A stretch of 64,000 bases of DNA from an uncultured Pseudomonadota bacterium (lineage in GTDB: Bacteria > Pseudomonadota > Alphaproteobacteria > RF32 > CAG-239), in contig CADBEI010000007.1 of NCBI GenBank assembly GCA_902793695.1, forward strand, positions 804 through 64,803, in the 5' to 3' direction. The notes under the pieces are model-generated. The model was given only the letters and a program-made list of their open reading frames with translations, had not been told where the DNA came from and did no database searches. Within the stretch, counting starts at the first letter, position 1; each line of letters begins with the position of its first letter. This document shows, piece after piece, positions 1 through 36,332 of this stretch. A program made the translations under genes and the position numbers.

Positions 1-231
1 GAAAGAAATATGATTAAAATGCGTCAGAAGGAAGGGATTGCTATCGCCAAAGCAAAGGGCGTGTATTCAAAGGAACGGAGCAAGAAGTTATCTCTCTCGC
101 AACAAAAGGAATTAAAGCAGGATATTGAAAACAAAGTTCGTGTCTGTGTGATTTTGAAAAAATACGGCATCACCAAACCGACATACTATCGGTATAAAGA
201 TAGTTTATATAAAAAGAAGGCTATCGTTTAA
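1..231 (+). CDS. Serine recombinase/resolvase, C-terminal HTH part (5' truncated by window edge)
   Basis: The frame is open from base 1 (ERNMIKMRQKEGIAIAKAKG...). The pattern matches the linker plus HTH end of resolvase/invertase proteins (..AKAKG..., ITKPTYYRY). Confidence 0.55.
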   Translation, partial: ERNMIKMRQKEGIAIAKAKGVYSKERSKKLSLSQQKELKQDIENKVRVCVILKKYGITKPTYYRYKDSLYKKKAIV

Positions 232-546
232 GCACATTCAATAGAAAATGTAATTAAAGGATAGCCCTCTTTGAGTTTGTTTCGCCAAGTTTTGCGGTCG
301 TTTTGCTTTTTCTTGTTCGCTATGACTTTCTGGCGGTAAAGTCCATTATGATAAAGGTCAAAAAGCAAACATCGTTCTTCGCCTGTCTTAATTCGTTTTT
401 GTTTTCGTTTTTTCATTTTAAATCCTTTCTGTTATTGAGTTTCAACGGATTTATAACGATTCTCAACCAACTTGTCAATATAGCAAATTGAGCCGCCTGT
501 TAAACAAACGACTCACTCTCACACGCTTTAATGACAATAGTATTTA

Positions 547-1017
547 TTATCTGGCATCTTTATGGTAGCCAACATTTATGTATCCAAACAGTTGATTTAT
601 CAGGCACAACGCTACAAATGCTATTGGCGAAGCAAGCCAAATATTAAAGTCGCCGTAGATGTAAATAATAATAAATGTGAATGGGTAATACAACAGCGAT
701 GTCAGACAGCCGAAAAATAATTCTGTTAGATGAGGGATAGTATTGAGGCACCGTGTATATGGTGAAAACATTCTTCTATATACTTTATTGCCATTCATCC
801 CTACAATTTCCAGCAACAGAGCAAATCCTGTGCAAACAGCGTGTATCAGAAGCCAAAACCCTGTTGTAATAGGATAGAAAACGTCAATCTTTTCTTCATA
901 GCCATACACTTGCCGTTGCTCTATCTGGGCTTTAAGACCGATAAAATAAGCATAAAATACAATTAGCGTTAGAGTTATGTATTGTGCAGTCGTCATTCCG
1001 TTTCCTATATTTTCCAC
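547..1017 (-). CDS. Hypothetical integral membrane protein (about 4 TM segments)
   Basis: 156-aa ORF with several hydrophobic stretches. Its start overlaps the stop of the upstream gene by 13 nt, and it is the last gene of a co-oriented operon. Confidence 0.5.
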   Translation of the reverse strand: MENIGNGMTTAQYITLTLIVFYAYFIGLKAQIEQRQVYGYEEKIDVFYPITTGFWLLIHAVCTGFALLLEIVGMNGNKVYRRMFSPYTRCLNTIPHLTELFFGCLTSLLYYPFTFIIIYIYGDFNIWLASPIAFVALCLINQLFGYINVGYHKDAR

Positions 1018-1577
1018 TTTTCTTTCACAATTCTCATATTTTCTCTAATTTCTGCCACCAATTTTTCTAACGCCTCATCTTGCTCGGCTTCTTTCTTCAA
1101 AATCTCGTGTAATTCCATTGTTGTAATTTCCTGCCGCCAGTGTTTCATCAGCAAATCGTGATGCTGAACGACAAACCGTCTCACGGCTTCCACATCTTCG
1201 GATTTGATTTTTATAAACTCTTCATCTTCCAAAACTTGTGGATTTTTAGATATACTCATCGGCAACACGTCAAAATGTGCCTTATTGTCATAATGATTTT
1301 GAAAAGTCAGCAGAGGCTCCGAATAGTGAAGATACTTCGGTTTTCGTAGGCTTCCGATTTCATCAAGCCGCAAATCAACTGGCAGACCTGTATATTTCTT
1401 ATCCAGTGTTGCCCAGAAAAAAGCGTAATCTTCTTCAAAAGTCATCCACTGAATTTGTTTCAGCGTTAATTTTTTGACACACATTTGAATCTCTACGCCC
1501 TGACTTTCCAGCCACTCAATAAGGCTTTCTTTTGTTTCTCCTTTGAGCCAACGCTCCCAGAATCTTTGTTTAGTCAT
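1005..1577 (-). CDS. Hypothetical protein (190 aa), no recognisable motif
   Basis: Long ORF in an operon. An AAGGAGG-like RBS (taaggaggttaaaaATG) precedes the start. Confidence 0.55.
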   Translation of the reverse strand: MTKQRFWERWLKGETKESLIEWLESQGVEIQMCVKKLTLKQIQWMTFEEDYAFFWATLDKKYTGLPVDLRLDEIGSLRKPKYLHYSEPLLTFQNHYDNKAHFDVLPMSISKNPQVLEDEEFIKIKSEDVEAVRRFVVQHHDLLMKHWRQEITTMELHEILKKEAEQDEALEKLVAEIRENMRIVKEKWKI

Positions 1578-1719
1578 TTTTAACCTCCTTATTAAGTAAT
1601 TTTTCTCGCCTATCTCTCTCTATTACCCACTCTTCGTATTTGTTGTCTTCATAATCGTGGTAATAACCGAAATCATATATTATACTGAAAGTTTCTTCCT
1701 TATGATTCCAATGTTTCAT
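1570..1719 (-). CDS. Possible small protein (49 aa) translationally coupled to the downstream gene
   Basis: Read manually: MKHWNHKEETFSIIYDFGYYHDYEDNKYEEWVIERDRREKLLNKEVKND. Its stop overlaps the ATG of the 1005..1577 gene. It is below the ORF-track length cutoff. Confidence 0.3.
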   Translation of the reverse strand: MKHWNHKEETFSIIYDFGYYHDYEDNKYEEWVIERDRREKLLNKEVKND

Positions 1720-1820
1720 TAGCCCCACATAGAATTTTTGAATATCCCCAGTGAAACGGCTGATAAAAGAAAAATATGCGATTATTCAAAAGCCATAGAA
1801 CTATATGTCCGCAGAGACCT

Positions 1821-2906
1821 TTATTTTTTATCCATTTCATCGCAGGTCTCCTTCTTATTTTTTCTGATTTCACAAAGTTTTAAAATTTTTTCTTTTGCGT
1901 ATGGCTCTATATCCCACTCTTGAAACATATCAATTTTTTCAACAGGAAAGTCATATTCTATCAATTTTTCGTAGATAAAATCAAATATTCCCCGATGAAA
2001 GTCTTGATTACAGATATATGATACATATGGCAGTTCCCAATACAGCCATTCTTTCAAAGACATATATTTCATCAGGTGTTTGAACTGTGCAAACCTTCCG
2101 ATTTCTTCCAACATAAAGAATGGATGTAATATCGGCCCTATTTTATATGCTTCATCTTCCTTGTTATATCTGTTTCCTTTTAAGGAAAAATATCTGTCAA
2201 TAGCAGAGCAAGACAACAAATTGCTATATCTGTGATTATTATTTTTTCTTGTTGTGATTGTCAAAATATGCTTAAACAACATCAAATCTGATGTAAAGTA
2301 GAACACATATTTGAAATTCAATTTAATATTAAATCCAAACCATTCTCTTTTATAATCAAATGGTTTATAGAATACCAATTCAAGATAATATAAAAAAGGT
2401 AAAGCAAACTCTATCGCCCTGCCATAAGGACAATTTAGCCAATCCTCGTTAAATATCTTTACCCATTTTGATGTAAAATACTCCTTATATTTTTGACGAC
2501 GAGGTTGGGAAAATACAACAGGTTTGGTCAGTTCCTTATCATAATACGCTATTGTTTTATATCCGTCTTTTTTGATATTATCGTAATATCTATCAAGATG
2601 TAAGTCATAATTATCATAACAACCTGTGTGCCCAAGACGAATACTGAATTTTATTCCAAACAACATAAAACTTATCAAAACACGAGAATGTTTGATAAAG
2701 AATCCCCAATCAATAACTTCTTTTATATCAAAATCACCGATTATTCTAAATTCCAGAGAGCGAAATTTGCCTAATTTAAGGATTAACTCACCGCGATAAT
2801 CATCTGCAAATTTTGATAAATCCAATGTTATCACCTTATTAAAGAAACATAATTTTAGTGATTGGTAACGCTTGGTATATTCAAACCATTTAAATGATTT
2901 TATCAT
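1821..2906 (-). CDS. Hypothetical protein (361 aa), aromatic/Lys-rich, no recognisable motif
   Basis: Long ORF whose start overlaps the stop of the upstream gene by 17 nt. Confidence 0.55.
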   Translation of the reverse strand: MIKSFKWFEYTKRYQSLKLCFFNKVITLDLSKFADDYRGELILKLGKFRSLEFRIIGDFDIKEVIDWGFFIKHSRVLISFMLFGIKFSIRLGHTGCYDNYDLHLDRYYDNIKKDGYKTIAYYDKELTKPVVFSQPRRQKYKEYFTSKWVKIFNEDWLNCPYGRAIEFALPFLYYLELVFYKPFDYKREWFGFNIKLNFKYVFYFTSDLMLFKHILTITTRKNNNHRYSNLLSCSAIDRYFSLKGNRYNKEDEAYKIGPILHPFFMLEEIGRFAQFKHLMKYMSLKEWLYWELPYVSYICNQDFHRGIFDFIYEKLIEYDFPVEKIDMFQEWDIEPYAKEKILKLCEIRKNKKETCDEMDKK

Positions 2907-3513
2907 CGCTCAACTCCTTCTTTTCTAAAACATTTCTTACAACATCAATCGTCTTATAGGTTTGCCAGTTTTGATACTGATGCTTAAAAGCAAGATTTGC
3001 TTTCCTAACCTTTTCCAGCAATTCTGATGGCAATGCCAGAGGATTTTTGCCATCTTTATGTTCTCGGGAAATCCGTTCTATCCGTCCGTTTTTAATGTAA
3101 TCAATAATGATTTTTTGCCCGTAGTGGGTAATAACCTGATAGGAAATGATTGGGTTTCCATTATAGCAAAAACCGTTATCCCATAGGCTAAACAGGTCTT
3201 TGAGGTGGATTTTGTAGTCAGACGATGAGTTCCAAGCCGCACCGCCGACCATTCCAGCATTGCGGTATGGCAGAAGAAAATCAACAATGATTTGGCTCAA
3301 CCCGAAATCAGATTGAAAATGTTTTTTATGTTTAATGAAGAAGTCCAAATTAGCCACAAACCAGCGTCTATCAATCTCCTGCTGACGCTGATATAACTTA
3401 CCAAACGCACTTTGGGTTGCTGCGAGTTCGTGGCGTAATTCTTGTTCTGCTGTTTGGATTTTATTATAAATGTCAGCATATCGCTGACGATAGTCATTAA
3501 GACTTAAACTCAT
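2890..3513 (-). CDS. Hypothetical protein (207 aa)
   Basis: I chose the internal ATG at 3513 (MSLSLNDY...) because it is preceded by aaggagaaagaaaATG. It is the first gene of the minus-strand operon. Confidence 0.5.
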   Translation of the reverse strand: MSLSLNDYRQRYADIYNKIQTAEQELRHELAATQSAFGKLYQRQQEIDRRWFVANLDFFIKHKKHFQSDFGLSQIIVDFLLPYRNAGMVGGAAWNSSSDYKIHLKDLFSLWDNGFCYNGNPIISYQVITHYGQKIIIDYIKNGRIERISREHKDGKNPLALPSELLEKVRKANLAFKHQYQNWQTYKTIDVVRNVLEKKELSDDKII

Positions 3514-3669
3514 TTTCTTTCTCCTTTTAGTCCGCTTAAAGTGGGACAAGTTGGGTTATAAATTCACTTTTTGAAATGCTTTTCTGGCATCTCGTTGTTT
3601 ATTGTATAACACGATGGATTGAAAAAATCAAGCGGTATTTTTTTAGAATATGTCAGATTTTGACATAGT

Positions 3670-4287
3670 TTAGGTAGCAAGTTCTTCTTGTTGAATAGAT
3701 GTCTTTATATATCGTTGTAATGTGCTCCACGAGCAATCAAGAAGCCGTGATATTTCAGATTTTGAAACCTTTTTATTAAGCAATTCTACTATTTTCTTAT
3801 GTTTTCTCTTTAACTTTTGTGAGGTTTTACCAAGCGGTCGTCCTATATGTTTATGTTCTGCTTTGAGCCGAGCCAAACTTTCTTTGGTTCTTTGAGATAT
3901 CAGTTGGCGTTCAATTTCGCTTGCCAGAGTAAAAGAGAAAGCAAGTGCTTTACTTTGTATATCATCTCCGAGCCGATAGTTTTCTTTCAATGTCCATATT
4001 TTCGTTTCACGCTCCAAGCAAGTGTTTAGAATACCCATAACTTCAAGCATACTCCTTCCTAAACGACTTAATTCTGTGGCAATCAAGATGTCATCTTTTT
4101 TTAGTTTTTTGAGTAGTTTTCCGAGTTTTCGTTCTTTAAGGGGTTTCCGAGATGATATGGTTTCCTCCACCCAGACAGAGATGTTTATATTATTTTTTTC
4201 ACAAAACTCATTAAGAGCAAAGCGTTGATTTTCCAGAGTTTGAAGATTTGATGAAACGCGAGTGTAAGCATAAATAGTCATAAGCAA
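3670..4287 (-). CDS. Serine recombinase (resolvase/invertase family)
   Basis: The N-terminal catalytic motif is IYAYTRVSSNLQTLENQ, and the protein has a C-terminal HTH (SKSEISRLLDCSWSTLQRYI). Confidence 0.85.
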   Translation of the reverse strand: MLMTIYAYTRVSSNLQTLENQRFALNEFCEKNNINISVWVEETISSRKPLKERKLGKLLKKLKKDDILIATELSRLGRSMLEVMGILNTCLERETKIWTLKENYRLGDDIQSKALAFSFTLASEIERQLISQRTKESLARLKAEHKHIGRPLGKTSQKLKRKHKKIVELLNKKVSKSEISRLLDCSWSTLQRYIKTSIQQEELAT

Positions 4288-8124: not shown

Positions 8125-8266
8125 TCTCTGTCAGATTCTGACATAGTTCAAAAAATTATACTTGATTTGTGAATTATTATGTGGTAATCCATCTTATGAA
8201 TGGTGGTTATTTATAATCCAACTTGTTTGCCACCTTTATAAACAAATAACTAAAAGGAGACATAAT

Positions 8267-9055
8267 ATGAATCTAATTAAAACATTTTCCGTAATTTTGG
8301 CTTTGATAATGCTCGCTAACCCAGCGTGGTGTGGCGATTCGCAGGCTTTTGATAACTATGCGGTATCAGAAGCAACCCATCATCAAAATGTTGATATTCT
8401 CAAAGATTACATTATCAAGTTTCACGCCCGTGGCGGAGCATTTATCGTGCTTGATACCGAAACAAAAGACCTTATTGATAAGCAGTTTGTCGGCAGCGTT
8501 TGGGAAGGTTTCCCAATCTGGTCGCACAATGCTTTGCGTTTGTTTAACTATGCTATCGGACTTCATACAGGTGCCATAAAAGAAAACGAAAAAATTATCT
8601 TAAATGTCAGAGATTCCAAACTGTTTGACCGTATCGCCAAAGCCGACCGCGAGGCTTATATGAAACCATATATCGTCAAAGATACTGCGATGCCGATGAC
8701 ATTATTGCTCGCTTACATTAAGTTATTCAAAAACGCTGATGGCTACTTGACCGAATCGCAAATCGCTAAACTTAAATCCGCCTTATCGGAAAATGTTAAA
8801 ACAGGCAAGGCAACACGAGCCAACGTTGAGGGAGCGAGTGTGGCAGGATTAGGCTCTACAACGGATAAAGATAAGGACGGTAAAGAAGTTTATACCGTTT
8901 TTGTGGGCGAGTTTGAGGCAAACGGCAAGAATTATGCCATTATAACGCTTTTGGACGAGCCAGAGGCGTTACAATCCACTTATGGATTCAACACAACAGG
9001 TTGGAACACGGCACCAATGACAGCCGAAATAATCAAGAATATCGGCACTAAATAA
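8267..9055 (+). CDS. Secreted penicillin-binding-protein transpeptidase-like protein with degenerate catalytic motifs
   Basis: The signal peptide is MNLIKTFSVILALIMLANPAWCG, and an AGGAG RBS precedes ATG 8267. The C-terminus TYGFNTTGWNTAPMTAEIIKNI parallels the FtsI of this window (TYGFTTAGWNAVPITRNIIAAV). The SxxK position reads HNALR and the KTG position reads GLGSTT. Confidence 0.5.
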   Translation: MNLIKTFSVILALIMLANPAWCGDSQAFDNYAVSEATHHQNVDILKDYIIKFHARGGAFIVLDTETKDLIDKQFVGSVWEGFPIWSHNALRLFNYAIGLHTGAIKENEKIILNVRDSKLFDRIAKADREAYMKPYIVKDTAMPMTLLLAYIKLFKNADGYLTESQIAKLKSALSENVKTGKATRANVEGASVAGLGSTTDKDKDGKEVYTVFVGEFEANGKNYAIITLLDEPEALQSTYGFNTTGWNTAPMTAEIIKNIGTK

Positions 9056-30967: not shown

Positions 30968-32737
30968 TTAAAAAGCCTGTTTTTTTACCTTGTAAGCCGC
31001 ATCTACAATGCTTTTTTGCTTCTCTATATCAAAATCGGCCTTTATGTTAAGTTGCGGGGCAACCGCGGCAATAATATTTCGTGTAATCGGCACCGCATTC
31101 CAACCGGCTGTGGTAAAGCCATACGTTTCTTTGCTGGCTTTCGGATCATCAATCACCACCAACAGCGCATATTTCGGGTCAGACTGCGGAAAAGCCGAAA
31201 TAAACGATGAAATACTTTTACTGTGGTTATAATGCCCGTTTTCCAGCTTATCGGCGGTACCGGTTTTACCCATAACCTGATAACCTTCCACATTGGCGCG
31301 CCGACCGGTACCTCTGGTCACAACCGCCCGCAACAGAGTGCGCATATTGTCAGAAGTTTGCTCGGAGACGACTCTTTTTCCTTTATGCTTATTATTATAT
31401 AAGAGTGTCGGCTGATGATACATCCCGCCGTTAACAATAGCGGAAAATGCCGTAATAATATGCAACGGAGTCGAAGAAATACCGTAGCCGTAGCTGATGG
31501 TGGCCATTGTTACATCTCCCCACCTTTCTTTGCTGGCAAACCATGGCTTTGCCAACTCCGGCAATTCAAATTCGGTCAAAGCCTTATCCATATTGATACT
31601 TTGCAAAAATTTGCGCTGAAACTTTTTACCGACTCGCAAAATCTCCAAAGTCGAACCGATATTGGACGACTCCACTAAAATATCTTCCGGCGTCAAATAT
31701 CCGTGCGAACCGTGCGGATCCGTAACCTTTAGGCGGTGCACATGGATTGCATGCGATGTATCAAATCTGTCCGTAATTTTCACTTTACCGCTTTCCAAGC
31801 TGAGCGCCGTATTGAAAACCTTAAACACCGAGCCGGCCTCATAAATACCCTTGGTGGCAAAGTTAAACATTTCTTTTTCGCCGAATTTACTGTTTTCGTT
31901 CGGGTCATAATCCGGCACCGAAGTCATAGCCACCACCTGACCGGTCTTAACATCCATCAAAATTGCGGCACCGCCGGCGGCATTAAATTTTTGCACTCCG
32001 GCAATCAGTTCATCGCGAATCTGGTTTTGAATACCCAAATCAAGCGACAAATACAGCGGTTTGGTTGAGGTTGTCAAACGCTCGTTCATTGATTTTTCAA
32101 TGCCGGCAATACCGTTATTATCAACATCGGTACTTCCCAAAACGTGTGCAAACAGATTCTTATGCGGATAAACCCGCTTTTCGCAACTCTCAAATTCCAA
32201 CCCCGGAATACCGAGATTATTGACTTGCGACTGTTGTGCCGGCGAAAGATTGCGTTTTAAATAGATAAACGCCCCTTTGCGATTGAGGCGATTTAAAAAG
32301 TATTCATACGAATCGTCCGGAAAAATTTCGCTCAAAGTGGCGGCCACATCTTCCGGATGGCGAATCTGTTTGGTATTGGCATACAGATTTTTGGTCGGTA
32401 AAGAAGTAGCGATAACCTCGCCGTTGCGATCCATAATATCGGCACGTTTAACCGTGTTTTTAAAATGAATAATATCCTCATCGGACATCTCGGCCAAGGC
32501 CGTATCAATATTGATGCCGTTGCCCAAACATACATAGGTCACGCGCGCACACAAAATCAAATAAACCGCAACAAAACAACAAAGCGCAAACAGCGTACGC
32601 TGACGACAGGTCAAAACATTATCATTCTCGGTGGTATAGCTTTTGGAGGTAATGGCACGTCGCGAAATCTTTATCTCCTGTCCCGGGAGATAAATTTTTT
32701 CTTCCTTTCGTTTAGAGAAACTGACGTTAAACCCCAT
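30968..32737 (-). CDS. ftsI: Peptidoglycan D,D-transpeptidase FtsI (PBP3)
   Basis: The protein has an N-terminal TM segment, SxxK (GSVFK), GKTGTA and the dcw cluster context. Confidence 0.9.
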   Translation of the reverse strand: MGFNVSFSKRKEEKIYLPGQEIKISRRAITSKSYTTENDNVLTCRQRTLFALCCFVAVYLILCARVTYVCLGNGINIDTALAEMSDEDIIHFKNTVKRADIMDRNGEVIATSLPTKNLYANTKQIRHPEDVAATLSEIFPDDSYEYFLNRLNRKGAFIYLKRNLSPAQQSQVNNLGIPGLEFESCEKRVYPHKNLFAHVLGSTDVDNNGIAGIEKSMNERLTTSTKPLYLSLDLGIQNQIRDELIAGVQKFNAAGGAAILMDVKTGQVVAMTSVPDYDPNENSKFGEKEMFNFATKGIYEAGSVFKVFNTALSLESGKVKITDRFDTSHAIHVHRLKVTDPHGSHGYLTPEDILVESSNIGSTLEILRVGKKFQRKFLQSINMDKALTEFELPELAKPWFASKERWGDVTMATISYGYGISSTPLHIITAFSAIVNGGMYHQPTLLYNNKHKGKRVVSEQTSDNMRTLLRAVVTRGTGRRANVEGYQVMGKTGTADKLENGHYNHSKSISSFISAFPQSDPKYALLVVIDDPKASKETYGFTTAGWNAVPITRNIIAAVAPQLNIKADFDIEKQKSIVDAAYKVKKQAF

Positions 32738-35726: not shown

Positions 35727-36332
35727 TTAGATGTCGGAGATGACGGAAAGGGCAATAATCTCATCCGGATTTTCAACCATTCCATTGGGTTCGCCACCTT
35801 TTTTAAGCATATCGACATATTCCATACCGGAGGTTACTTCGCCCCAGACGGTATATTGACCATCAAGCCACGGACAATCGGCGTAACAAATAAAGAATTG
35901 GCTGTCGGCCGAATCCGGCATCATGGCACGCGCCATCGAAACCGTACCGCGTTTGTGCGGAGTGCGATTAAATTCGGCTTTGAGCTTTTTGCCGCTACCG
36001 CCGGTGCCATCGCCGCGCGGACAACCGGCTTGCGCCATAAAACCTTCAATCACTCGATGAAATTTCAGGCCGTTATAAAAACCCTGCCGCACCAATTCCT
36101 TAATTCGCGCCACATGGTTCGGAGCAATATCCGGCAACATTTCGATAATCACGTCACCGTATTTTGTTTGCAATAACAGAGCATTGTCGGCATCTTTAAC
36201 CCTGTATGAATGCTTGATTTTTTTAGCTCTGGTTTCGCTCATTGCCAATTTTTTAGTTTCTTTATTTTCCAAATTTTTGGTAGAAGGTTTGGAAAGATTT
36301 TTTGTTTTGTTTTTATCCAATAAATCAGTCAT
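35727..36332 (-). CDS. Cyclophilin-type peptidyl-prolyl cis-trans isomerase with Lys-rich N-terminal extension
   Basis: FHRVIEGFMAQAGCPRGDGTGGSG and the SMARA..PDSADSQFFI motif are present. Confidence 0.9.
   Translation of the reverse strand: MTDLLDKNKTKNLSKPSTKNLENKETKKLAMSETRAKKIKHSYRVKDADNALLLQTKYGDVIIEMLPDIAPNHVARIKELVRQGFYNGLKFHRVIEGFMAQAGCPRGDGTGGSGKKLKAEFNRTPHKRGTVSMARAMMPDSADSQFFICYADCPWLDGQYTVWGEVTSGMEYVDMLKKGGEPNGMVENPDEIIALSVISDI

Follow-up and report, generated by a model that had tools for sequence, protein, structure and literature searches.

The gene at positions 8267–9055 of the 64,000-nucleotide stretch of DNA analysed here (the window; contig CADBEI010000007.1 of assembly GCA_902793695.1, from an uncultured, small-genome rumen alphaproteobacterium of the GTDB lineage RF32, CAG-239) encodes a 262-residue protein that is an exported, cut-down transpeptidase domain of FtsI/PBP3 (PBP, penicillin-binding protein). 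The three catalytic motifs of this domain are lost, the gene is held by selection, and it lies on a mobile island behind a leader RNA resembling the SAM-II riboswitch (SAM, S-adenosylmethionine). The identity of the protein and this regulatory layout are regarded as solid. An initial annotation, made from the sequence alone, had described the product as secreted, non-catalytic and PBP3-derived, which is supported by the loss of the motifs and by the selection on the gene; the SAM-II-type leader was absent from that reading and is an unexpected finding. Few bacterial proteins have been studied as thoroughly as those with penicillin-binding domains, yet our literature searches turned up no stand-alone, exported FtsI transpeptidase core that lacks the motifs, is under selection and is spread by islands.

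Homology to FtsI and predicted fold

The coding region, the sites of two lost motifs and the comparator in the window are:

8267–9055, + strand: open reading frame (ORF) of the FtsI-transpeptidase-like pseudoenzyme, 262 residues, supported by homology, fold and a dN/dS (ratio of nonsynonymous to synonymous substitution rates) of 0.12–0.18
8528–8539, + strand: codons of N88-A-L-R91, at the place of SxxK (FtsI S303-V-F-K306), by hhalign and BLASTP
8849–8857, + strand: codons of L195-G-S197, at the place of KTG (FtsI K491-T-G493), by BLASTP and hhalign
30968–32737, − strand: chromosomal ftsI, outside the island, comparator and likely type of ancestor (PF00905, 198.6 bits)

The similarity to the FtsI of the window, already noted in the initial annotation, is real by BLASTP, profile–profile comparison, Pfam and AlphaFold/Foldseek. 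BLASTP aligns the last 106 residues at 33% identity (E = 3e-17), as well as the GGAFIVLD block (E = 0.006). The Pfam Transpeptidase family PF00905 matches with 24.2 bits, against a cut-off of 22.1, over residues 129–237 only. Comparison of the family profile with an FtsI profile by hhalign gives a probability of 99.9% (E = 9e-33) over FtsI residues 230–560; the alignment is not limited to short blocks, nor does it recover intact SxxK, SxN or KTG motifs. A sequence search of the PDB with the single 262-residue protein gave no direct match, and the family profile does retrieve 4ztk by sequence. The only NCBIfam matches are to SpoVD and OXA families, far below threshold.

The AlphaFold2 model, predicted from a 29-sequence family alignment (predicted local distance difference test, pLDDT, 83.3; predicted template modelling score, pTM, 0.81), has the PBP3 transpeptidase-type fold, the outcome of a structure prediction that had been proposed along with the annotation. 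The best Foldseek match is 4ztk (E = 4e-11, TMq 0.70), and all top PDB matches are FtsI/PBP3 transpeptidase domains. The fold is thus of the transpeptidase/β-lactamase-like type. It keeps the five-stranded sheet and flanking helices; much of the helical subdomain has gone, with some 100 residues missing from the all-helical half. Homology to the FtsI/PBP3 transpeptidase domain (PF00905; 4ZTK, 6HZI) is clear over the N-terminal helix, strands β1–2 and β3–5, and the C-terminal helix, and the lineage-typical TYGF..GWN motif is kept, as in FtsI. A PF03717 match is present in the window FtsI; a Pfam scan found none in the 262-residue protein, whose homology begins at about FtsI residue 230. Unlike FtsI, a class B PBP, the protein therefore stands alone, exported and without the membrane anchor and the pedestal (PBP dimerisation) domain; it is also accessory and island-borne, in contrast to the essential chromosomal FtsI.

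Alignment bears out the initial reading of N..R at the SxxK place and LGS at the KTG place. In the close clade, N88 is nearly invariant and R91 invariant, and the family consensus at the KTG place is [LIV]-[TSG]-[SAT]. The SxN motif of FtsI (SSN, residues 357–359) falls within the stretch of about 100 residues that has no counterpart in the hhalign alignment, and the protein has none of the SxxK, SxN and KTG motifs of PF00905. Penicillin-binding-protein chemistry is excluded on sequence grounds, because the acylation machinery is missing: the serine is replaced by asparagine, the lysine by arginine and KTG by LGS, and SxN is absent.

Translation start and export

The ORF starts with an ATG, 7 nucleotides past the GGAG of the ribosome-binding site AAAAGGAG, and its first codons specify an export signal:

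8267–8332, + strand: predicted Sec signal peptide, residues 1–22, from the hydrophobic segment, with putative cleavage after A-W-C

The N-terminus, MNLIKTFSVILALIMLANPAWC followed by GD, fits the Sec signal peptide pattern in its charge, its hydrophobic core and its small-residue site. The hydrophobic segment has a mean Kyte-Doolittle value of 2.62 over 12 residues and is followed by A-W-C and then G, as expected for the cleavable signal peptide that had been annotated, although cleavage itself is a prediction. In the AlphaFold model, residues 3–17 form an N-terminal helix at low confidence. Among 63 family members, 57 have an N-terminal hydrophobic segment and 27 a lipobox, the latter often followed by a conserved cysteine pair of the periplasm type. 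These signal segments, lipoboxes and cysteine pairs indicate that the family is extracytoplasmic, with the 262-residue protein predicted to be soluble and others lipid-anchored.

Family, distribution and selection

About 30 close homologues, with 47–90% identity, were found in rumen and gut metagenomes and in metagenome-assembled genomes labelled 'Alphaproteobacteria bacterium'. An exhaustive HMMER search of 1.84 billion representatives added about 15 more clusters of stand-alone proteins of 190–270 residues; beyond those clusters, only the C-terminal ~95 residues of full-length FtsI (~580 residues) are matched. A second, word-indexed protein search with the family alignment yielded almost no further members. 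These sequences define a new family of secreted proteins or lipoproteins of 190–270 residues, seen in the host's bacterial family only, whose members share 25–90% identity. Many are shorter (190–230 residues), and in these the SxxK-bearing helix is also gone. A 188-residue member is predicted to have the same sheet-plus-helices core (pLDDT 87.5), and the short forms, with about 170 mature residues, define the minimal stable core of the fold. A metagenomic protein of 486 residues (P0032) carries two motif-less FtsI-like domains in tandem behind a single signal peptide.

The small copy is present as well as ftsI in about 23–28 of the 201 genomes of the host's bacterial family, and the carrier genomes are all small (1.1–2.0 Mb). 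It was found in none of 199 genomes of other alphaproteobacterial families. FtsI proteins of the host's family are top-scoring against the family profile (93–103 bits), with a few other lineages at 96–99 bits. Since the FtsI proteins of this lineage match the profile best, the sequences fit descent from an alphaproteobacterial ftsI of the host lineage or of one close to it. A phage origin found no support: tblastn of 50,697 phage records gave no match, IMG/VR none, and a viral structure library nothing useful.

Over the C-terminal region, members share 35.4% identity with the FtsI of their own host and 35.6% with the FtsI of other hosts, and the host's own FtsI never ranks first. This equality rules out ongoing gene conversion from, or host-specific mimicry of, the resident FtsI.

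Pairwise dN/dS is 0.12–0.18 at dS up to about 1.8; the gene is therefore functional and under purifying selection. More than 40 distinct sequences, the most diverged at 25% identity, keep an intact reading frame. Copies that are cut off, or whose frame is broken by a frameshift or an internal stop codon, were also seen, at L046 (G127:C21), L050 (G089:C2), G030:C12 and G107:C4 (L, G and C numbers denote loci, genomes and contigs). These broken relatives indicate repeated loss besides gain. Fast diversification together with repeated loss is a pattern typical of conflict genes.

A SAM-II-like leader RNA

The region upstream of the gene contains a conserved RNA element, with a second copy elsewhere on the island:

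8202–8259, + strand: SAM-II-like H-type pseudoknot leader (sub-threshold Rfam SAM_alpha match, covariation, helix variants)
8202–8207 with 8229–8234, + strand: helix P1
8225–8228 with 8247–8250, + strand: helix P2a
8210–8213 (UUUA) with 8251–8254 (UAAA), + strand: pairing within the leader
8256–8259, + strand: Shine-Dalgarno GGAG
3509–3572, − strand: second leader copy, before the minus-strand operon of the island (first ORF about 2890–3513; R1 44 bits, R2 66 bits)
8129–8143, + strand: perfect palindrome TGTCAGATTCTGACA, right after the stop codon of res, at the beginning of the conserved upstream region, kept upstream of the L001 orthologue as TGTCAGATTTTGACA although the gene before it differs there; hairpin

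About 140 nucleotides before the start codon are kept in two related loci (L001 and L002) despite different upstream genes. The Rfam SAM_alpha model (RF00521) gives full-length matches whose 3' ends lie just inside the ORF, by a few bases. They score 17.6 bits in the window, 27.1 (E = 0.003) in L002, L003 and L004, 25.9 in L009, and 20.2 and 22.2 in L001. The order of elements is S1, N, AUUUA, loop, S2 (GUNN), S1', L3, S2' (NNAC), UAAA, GGAG, about 7 nucleotides, and AUG. In an alignment of 15 leaders, 95.7% of cells pair, compared to 77% in shuffles and 34–53% when the partners are slid. Both sides change in every one of the six P1 pairs and in two of the four P2a pairs, and P2b pairs never vary; this covariation comes from only two or three main sequence classes, and the structure was derived from the same sequences. 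The palindrome could be an operator or the terminator of the res gene; simple promoter and terminator scans of the region were uninformative.

The leader shares with SAM-II (RF00521) an H-type pseudoknot, a U-rich loop, and a 3' strand of the form ...ACUAAA(G/A)-GGAG that adjoins the Shine-Dalgarno sequence, in agreement with the full-length model alignment. A further likeness is its association with a gene of SAM and methionine metabolism. A model built from the leader copies of FtsI-like gene loci (R1) was complemented by a broader model used for metK, the SAM synthetase gene. With the broader model, the motif lies directly upstream of seven of eight short-type metK genes, including that of the window's own genome (C21, about 36030–36095; L114:796–857); all 22 canonical metK genes lack it there. 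An Rfam scan of the metK leader copies detected no SAM_alpha. Across loci L115–L144, the bacterial family has two types of SAM synthetase, canonical (~390 residues) and short (~345 residues). Some genomes hold both, that of the window has the short type only, and the leader is found on the short type only.

Copies identified with the model built from leaders are present in 28 of the 201 related genomes; within the genome that contains the window, R1 gives significant scores to the two island copies alone. Unlike SAM-II, the leader precedes island cargo genes that have no connection with methionine or SAM metabolism. Across its copies, seven unrelated families occupy the position downstream of the leader: the FtsI-like protein, uncharacterised proteins of 206, 201 and 160 residues, ankyrin-repeat proteins, a flavodoxin, and SAM synthetase. 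The most economical reading of these sequence relationships is that a SAM-II-type metK riboswitch of the lineage would have been copied before island cargo genes. The element is thus a candidate for a diverged SAM-II-type riboswitch, missed by Rfam, before short metK and at least six unrelated island cargo families. It is of interest in its own right, since it opens SAM-linked control of accessory genes to direct test.

Island and genomic neighbourhood

The island end and the genes downstream of the FtsI-like gene are:

15427–15475, no strand assigned: right-hand 49-bp attachment (att) repeat inside tRNA-Pro (15432–15508, − strand); exact repeat
9070–12191, + strand: downstream co-directional genes, frequent but facultative neighbours, comprising
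9070–10539, + strand: DUF2779/Cas4-like
10536–11345, + strand: ADP-ribosylglycohydrolase (ARH)
11326–12000, + strand: degenerate Fic (SoFic-like)
11997–12191, + strand: 64-residue ORF

The left att copy, at C7:105–153, about 700 bp to the left of the window, exactly repeats the 3' part of tRNA-Pro. The 49-bp repeats enclose about 16 kb, with an integrase adjoining the tRNA, in agreement with the mobile island suspected initially. In all 25 loci, the gene occupies a variable cargo region that also carries serine recombinases, DUF6626/Rep-like genes or integrases. The gene had been placed 15 nucleotides upstream of the four-gene cluster; it is indeed upstream, and the gap to the next ORF, which starts at 9070, is 14 nucleotides.

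The cluster is not an obligate partner. ARH is directly downstream in six of the 25 loci, which span three subfamilies of the FtsI-like protein, and DUF6994 is a neighbour in four; other loci have ankyrin-repeat proteins, a lipoprotein or a small cysteine-rich secreted protein instead. The DUF2779 gene stands between the FtsI-like gene and ARH in the window and L032 only, and ARH occurs without the Fic-like gene in L032–L034. A close ARH orthologue is present in 11 genomes, seven of which lack the FtsI-like protein, and most FtsI-like copies have no ARH nearby, which rules out an obligate partnership. Because neighbours change and ARH often occurs without the protein, the gene is an autonomous single-gene cargo module, which shares its slot with the ARH/Fic-like module and is not a subunit of it.

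Possible function of the 262-residue protein

With catalysis excluded by sequence and decay by selection, a binding protein of the periplasm remains; the protein probably acts by binding, not by catalysis. We tentatively favour, as an explanation that as a whole falls short of being probable, a leader-controlled protective role. The leader would be a SAM-II-type OFF switch, and the protein would be made mainly at low SAM. In the periplasm it would bind without catalysis and offer an FtsI-transpeptidase-like surface to an incoming attacker of the wall or septum, such as a toxin from another bacterium or an enzyme from a phage or predator, which would be titrated away from its real target. The protective step taken alone, a decoy or inhibitor directed against an incoming wall-directed protein, is possible and somewhat doubtful. 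It is favoured by a gene that is accessory, patchy, lineage-restricted, island-borne, fast-diverging and repeatedly lost. The window also holds neighbours of defence type, a Type III restriction-modification system and the SoFic-like gene.

Several observations weigh against this explanation. The protein does not co-vary with the host FtsI, so that any mimicry would be generic. Residues conserved across the family are mostly those of the fold core, conserved in FtsI too (including TYGF..GWN), and no hypervariable surface patch stood out in the close clade. A PADLOC-DB scan of the protein matched 0 families, and no phage or viral-contig homologues were found. An immunity gene of a type VI secretion system or polymorphic toxin would be expected to lie directly beside its toxin gene in at least some loci, and the 25 loci have no toxin-like neighbour; the FtsI-like gene may be an orphan immunity gene. 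Neighbours elsewhere are ankyrin-repeat and uncharacterised proteins, not defence genes. On the side of the leader, all Rfam SAM_alpha scores are below the gathering score (17.6–27.1 compared to 36 bits), the element is found on long forms only, with short lipoprotein forms lacking it, and both SAM binding and the OFF logic are deduced from sequence comparison.

A bolder version, quite improbable as it stands, is that the island uses metK riboswitch copies as a sensor of SAM depletion, with the dead FtsI domain shielding septal wall synthesis as a periplasmic decoy. SAM would fall through starvation, or through a phage that destroys SAM to disarm the neighbouring SAM-dependent Type III restriction system, and the leaders would then release translation of island cargo operons. 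If true, this would be a riboswitch-gated back-up layer made from a pseudoenzyme copy of an essential host target.

Ranking second after the protective decoy, and unlikely, is a cell-wall pseudoenzyme that binds peptidoglycan or muropeptides, or docks on and regulates a resident peptidoglycan enzyme, resulting in an altered wall at low SAM. The fold derives from a peptidoglycan enzyme and the protein is periplasmic or a lipoprotein. The best conserved stretches include the β5–α11 loop motif TYGF...GWN, which in PBP3 lines the substrate cleft, and, within the long-form clade, the N-x-x-R helix remnant. However, the protein has neither the KTG lysine that binds the carboxylate nor the SxN region. 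Short members without the helical half, including the SxxK helix, fold confidently, so the canonical cleft is not a shared functional site. Canonical binding of stem peptides or β-lactams, as suggested in the initial annotation, is likewise unlikely, because the cleft is dismantled, and dispensable in the many members that also lack the SxxK helix and still have a confident fold. Moreover, a housekeeping regulator is expected to be a core gene, whereas this gene is present in about 12–14% of genomes and on islands only. Degenerate LytM factors such as EnvC and NlpD are pseudoenzyme regulators of cell-wall amidases. They provide a precedent for a periplasmic relative of a cell-wall enzyme that has lost its catalytic residues and works by binding; they differ in having an unrelated fold, in being core genes and in having known partners. 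If the 262-residue protein binds a partner, a pseudoenzyme regulator or decoy would be added to the biology of the cell wall and division.

Some phage and prophage products inhibit division. A secreted FtsI fragment could similarly be dominant-negative for FtsI partners or substrate, by which the island would slow or block septation, an improbable reading. The protein is FtsI-derived, with its closest relatives in the FtsI of the host and of a few other small-genome lineages, the gene is on a mobile element, and expression appears to be leader-controlled and not constitutive. However, in divisome structures such as 8BH1, FtsI binds FtsW and FtsQLB through its membrane anchor and pedestal, and the protein has neither transmembrane helix nor pedestal. 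Binding to divisome partners, another initial suggestion, is unlikely for the same reason. The protein also does not track the host FtsI, and some copies are in core-like chromosomal contexts.

A β-lactam sensor or sponge, comparable to the sensor domains of BlaR1/MecR1 or to class D β-lactamases, is very improbable and close to refuted. These proteins are, like the 262-residue protein, compact (~250 residues), stand-alone, exported and of the same superfold, and the size is close to theirs; there are weak NCBIfam OXA matches over residues 3–111, and the short form also matches OXA and BlaR1 structures. Class D β-lactamases and BlaR1/MecR1 keep the serine and lysines and are acylated by β-lactams, whereas here the nucleophile serine and both lysines are absent, as are transmembrane and signalling domains. 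The OXA matches score 13–20 bits against cut-offs of 550–580, S-T-F-K and KTG are absent, and the protein is nearer to PBP3 in sequence and in structure, its best structural matches being PBP3 domains. A decaying, functionless remnant of a duplicated ftsI, suggested by the loss of all catalytic motifs and by the several truncated or interrupted relatives, is scarcely credible, as it is contradicted by the selection data (dN/dS at the dS given above), the many intact frames, the confident structure predictions, and the conservation of signal peptides or lipoboxes and of the leader.

PBP3SAL of Salmonella is reported to be a horizontally acquired FtsI paralogue (PMC5736910). The likeness is an extra FtsI-derived gene on acquired DNA that is used under particular conditions; the difference is that the gene described here encodes a 240-residue motif-less fragment.

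Further features of the island and related loci

A further serine recombinase gene (C7:447–1034) lies just inside the left end of the island. Compared to L001 and L002, the window has two insertions, the Type III restriction-modification pair with a resolvase, and the DUF2779 gene. At L033:8690–9890 and in L034 (G113, G169), the ARH ORF is 400–408 residues long, with an N-terminal extension of about 140 residues, and stands beside a 233-residue form of the FtsI-like protein. Lipoprotein forms frequently have as their upstream neighbour an 85-residue secreted protein with three C-Y-Q-I-K-x-x-D-x-K-N-x-C-L repeats (L035:8680–8940, L037 and L040–L042; cluster c5). The minus-strand operon of the island, which encodes uncharacterised proteins (clusters c8, c27 and c18; window 1–4287), is kept in L001:7577–9746, where it and the FtsI-like gene are transcribed in opposite, divergent directions, each operon behind a separate copy of the leader.

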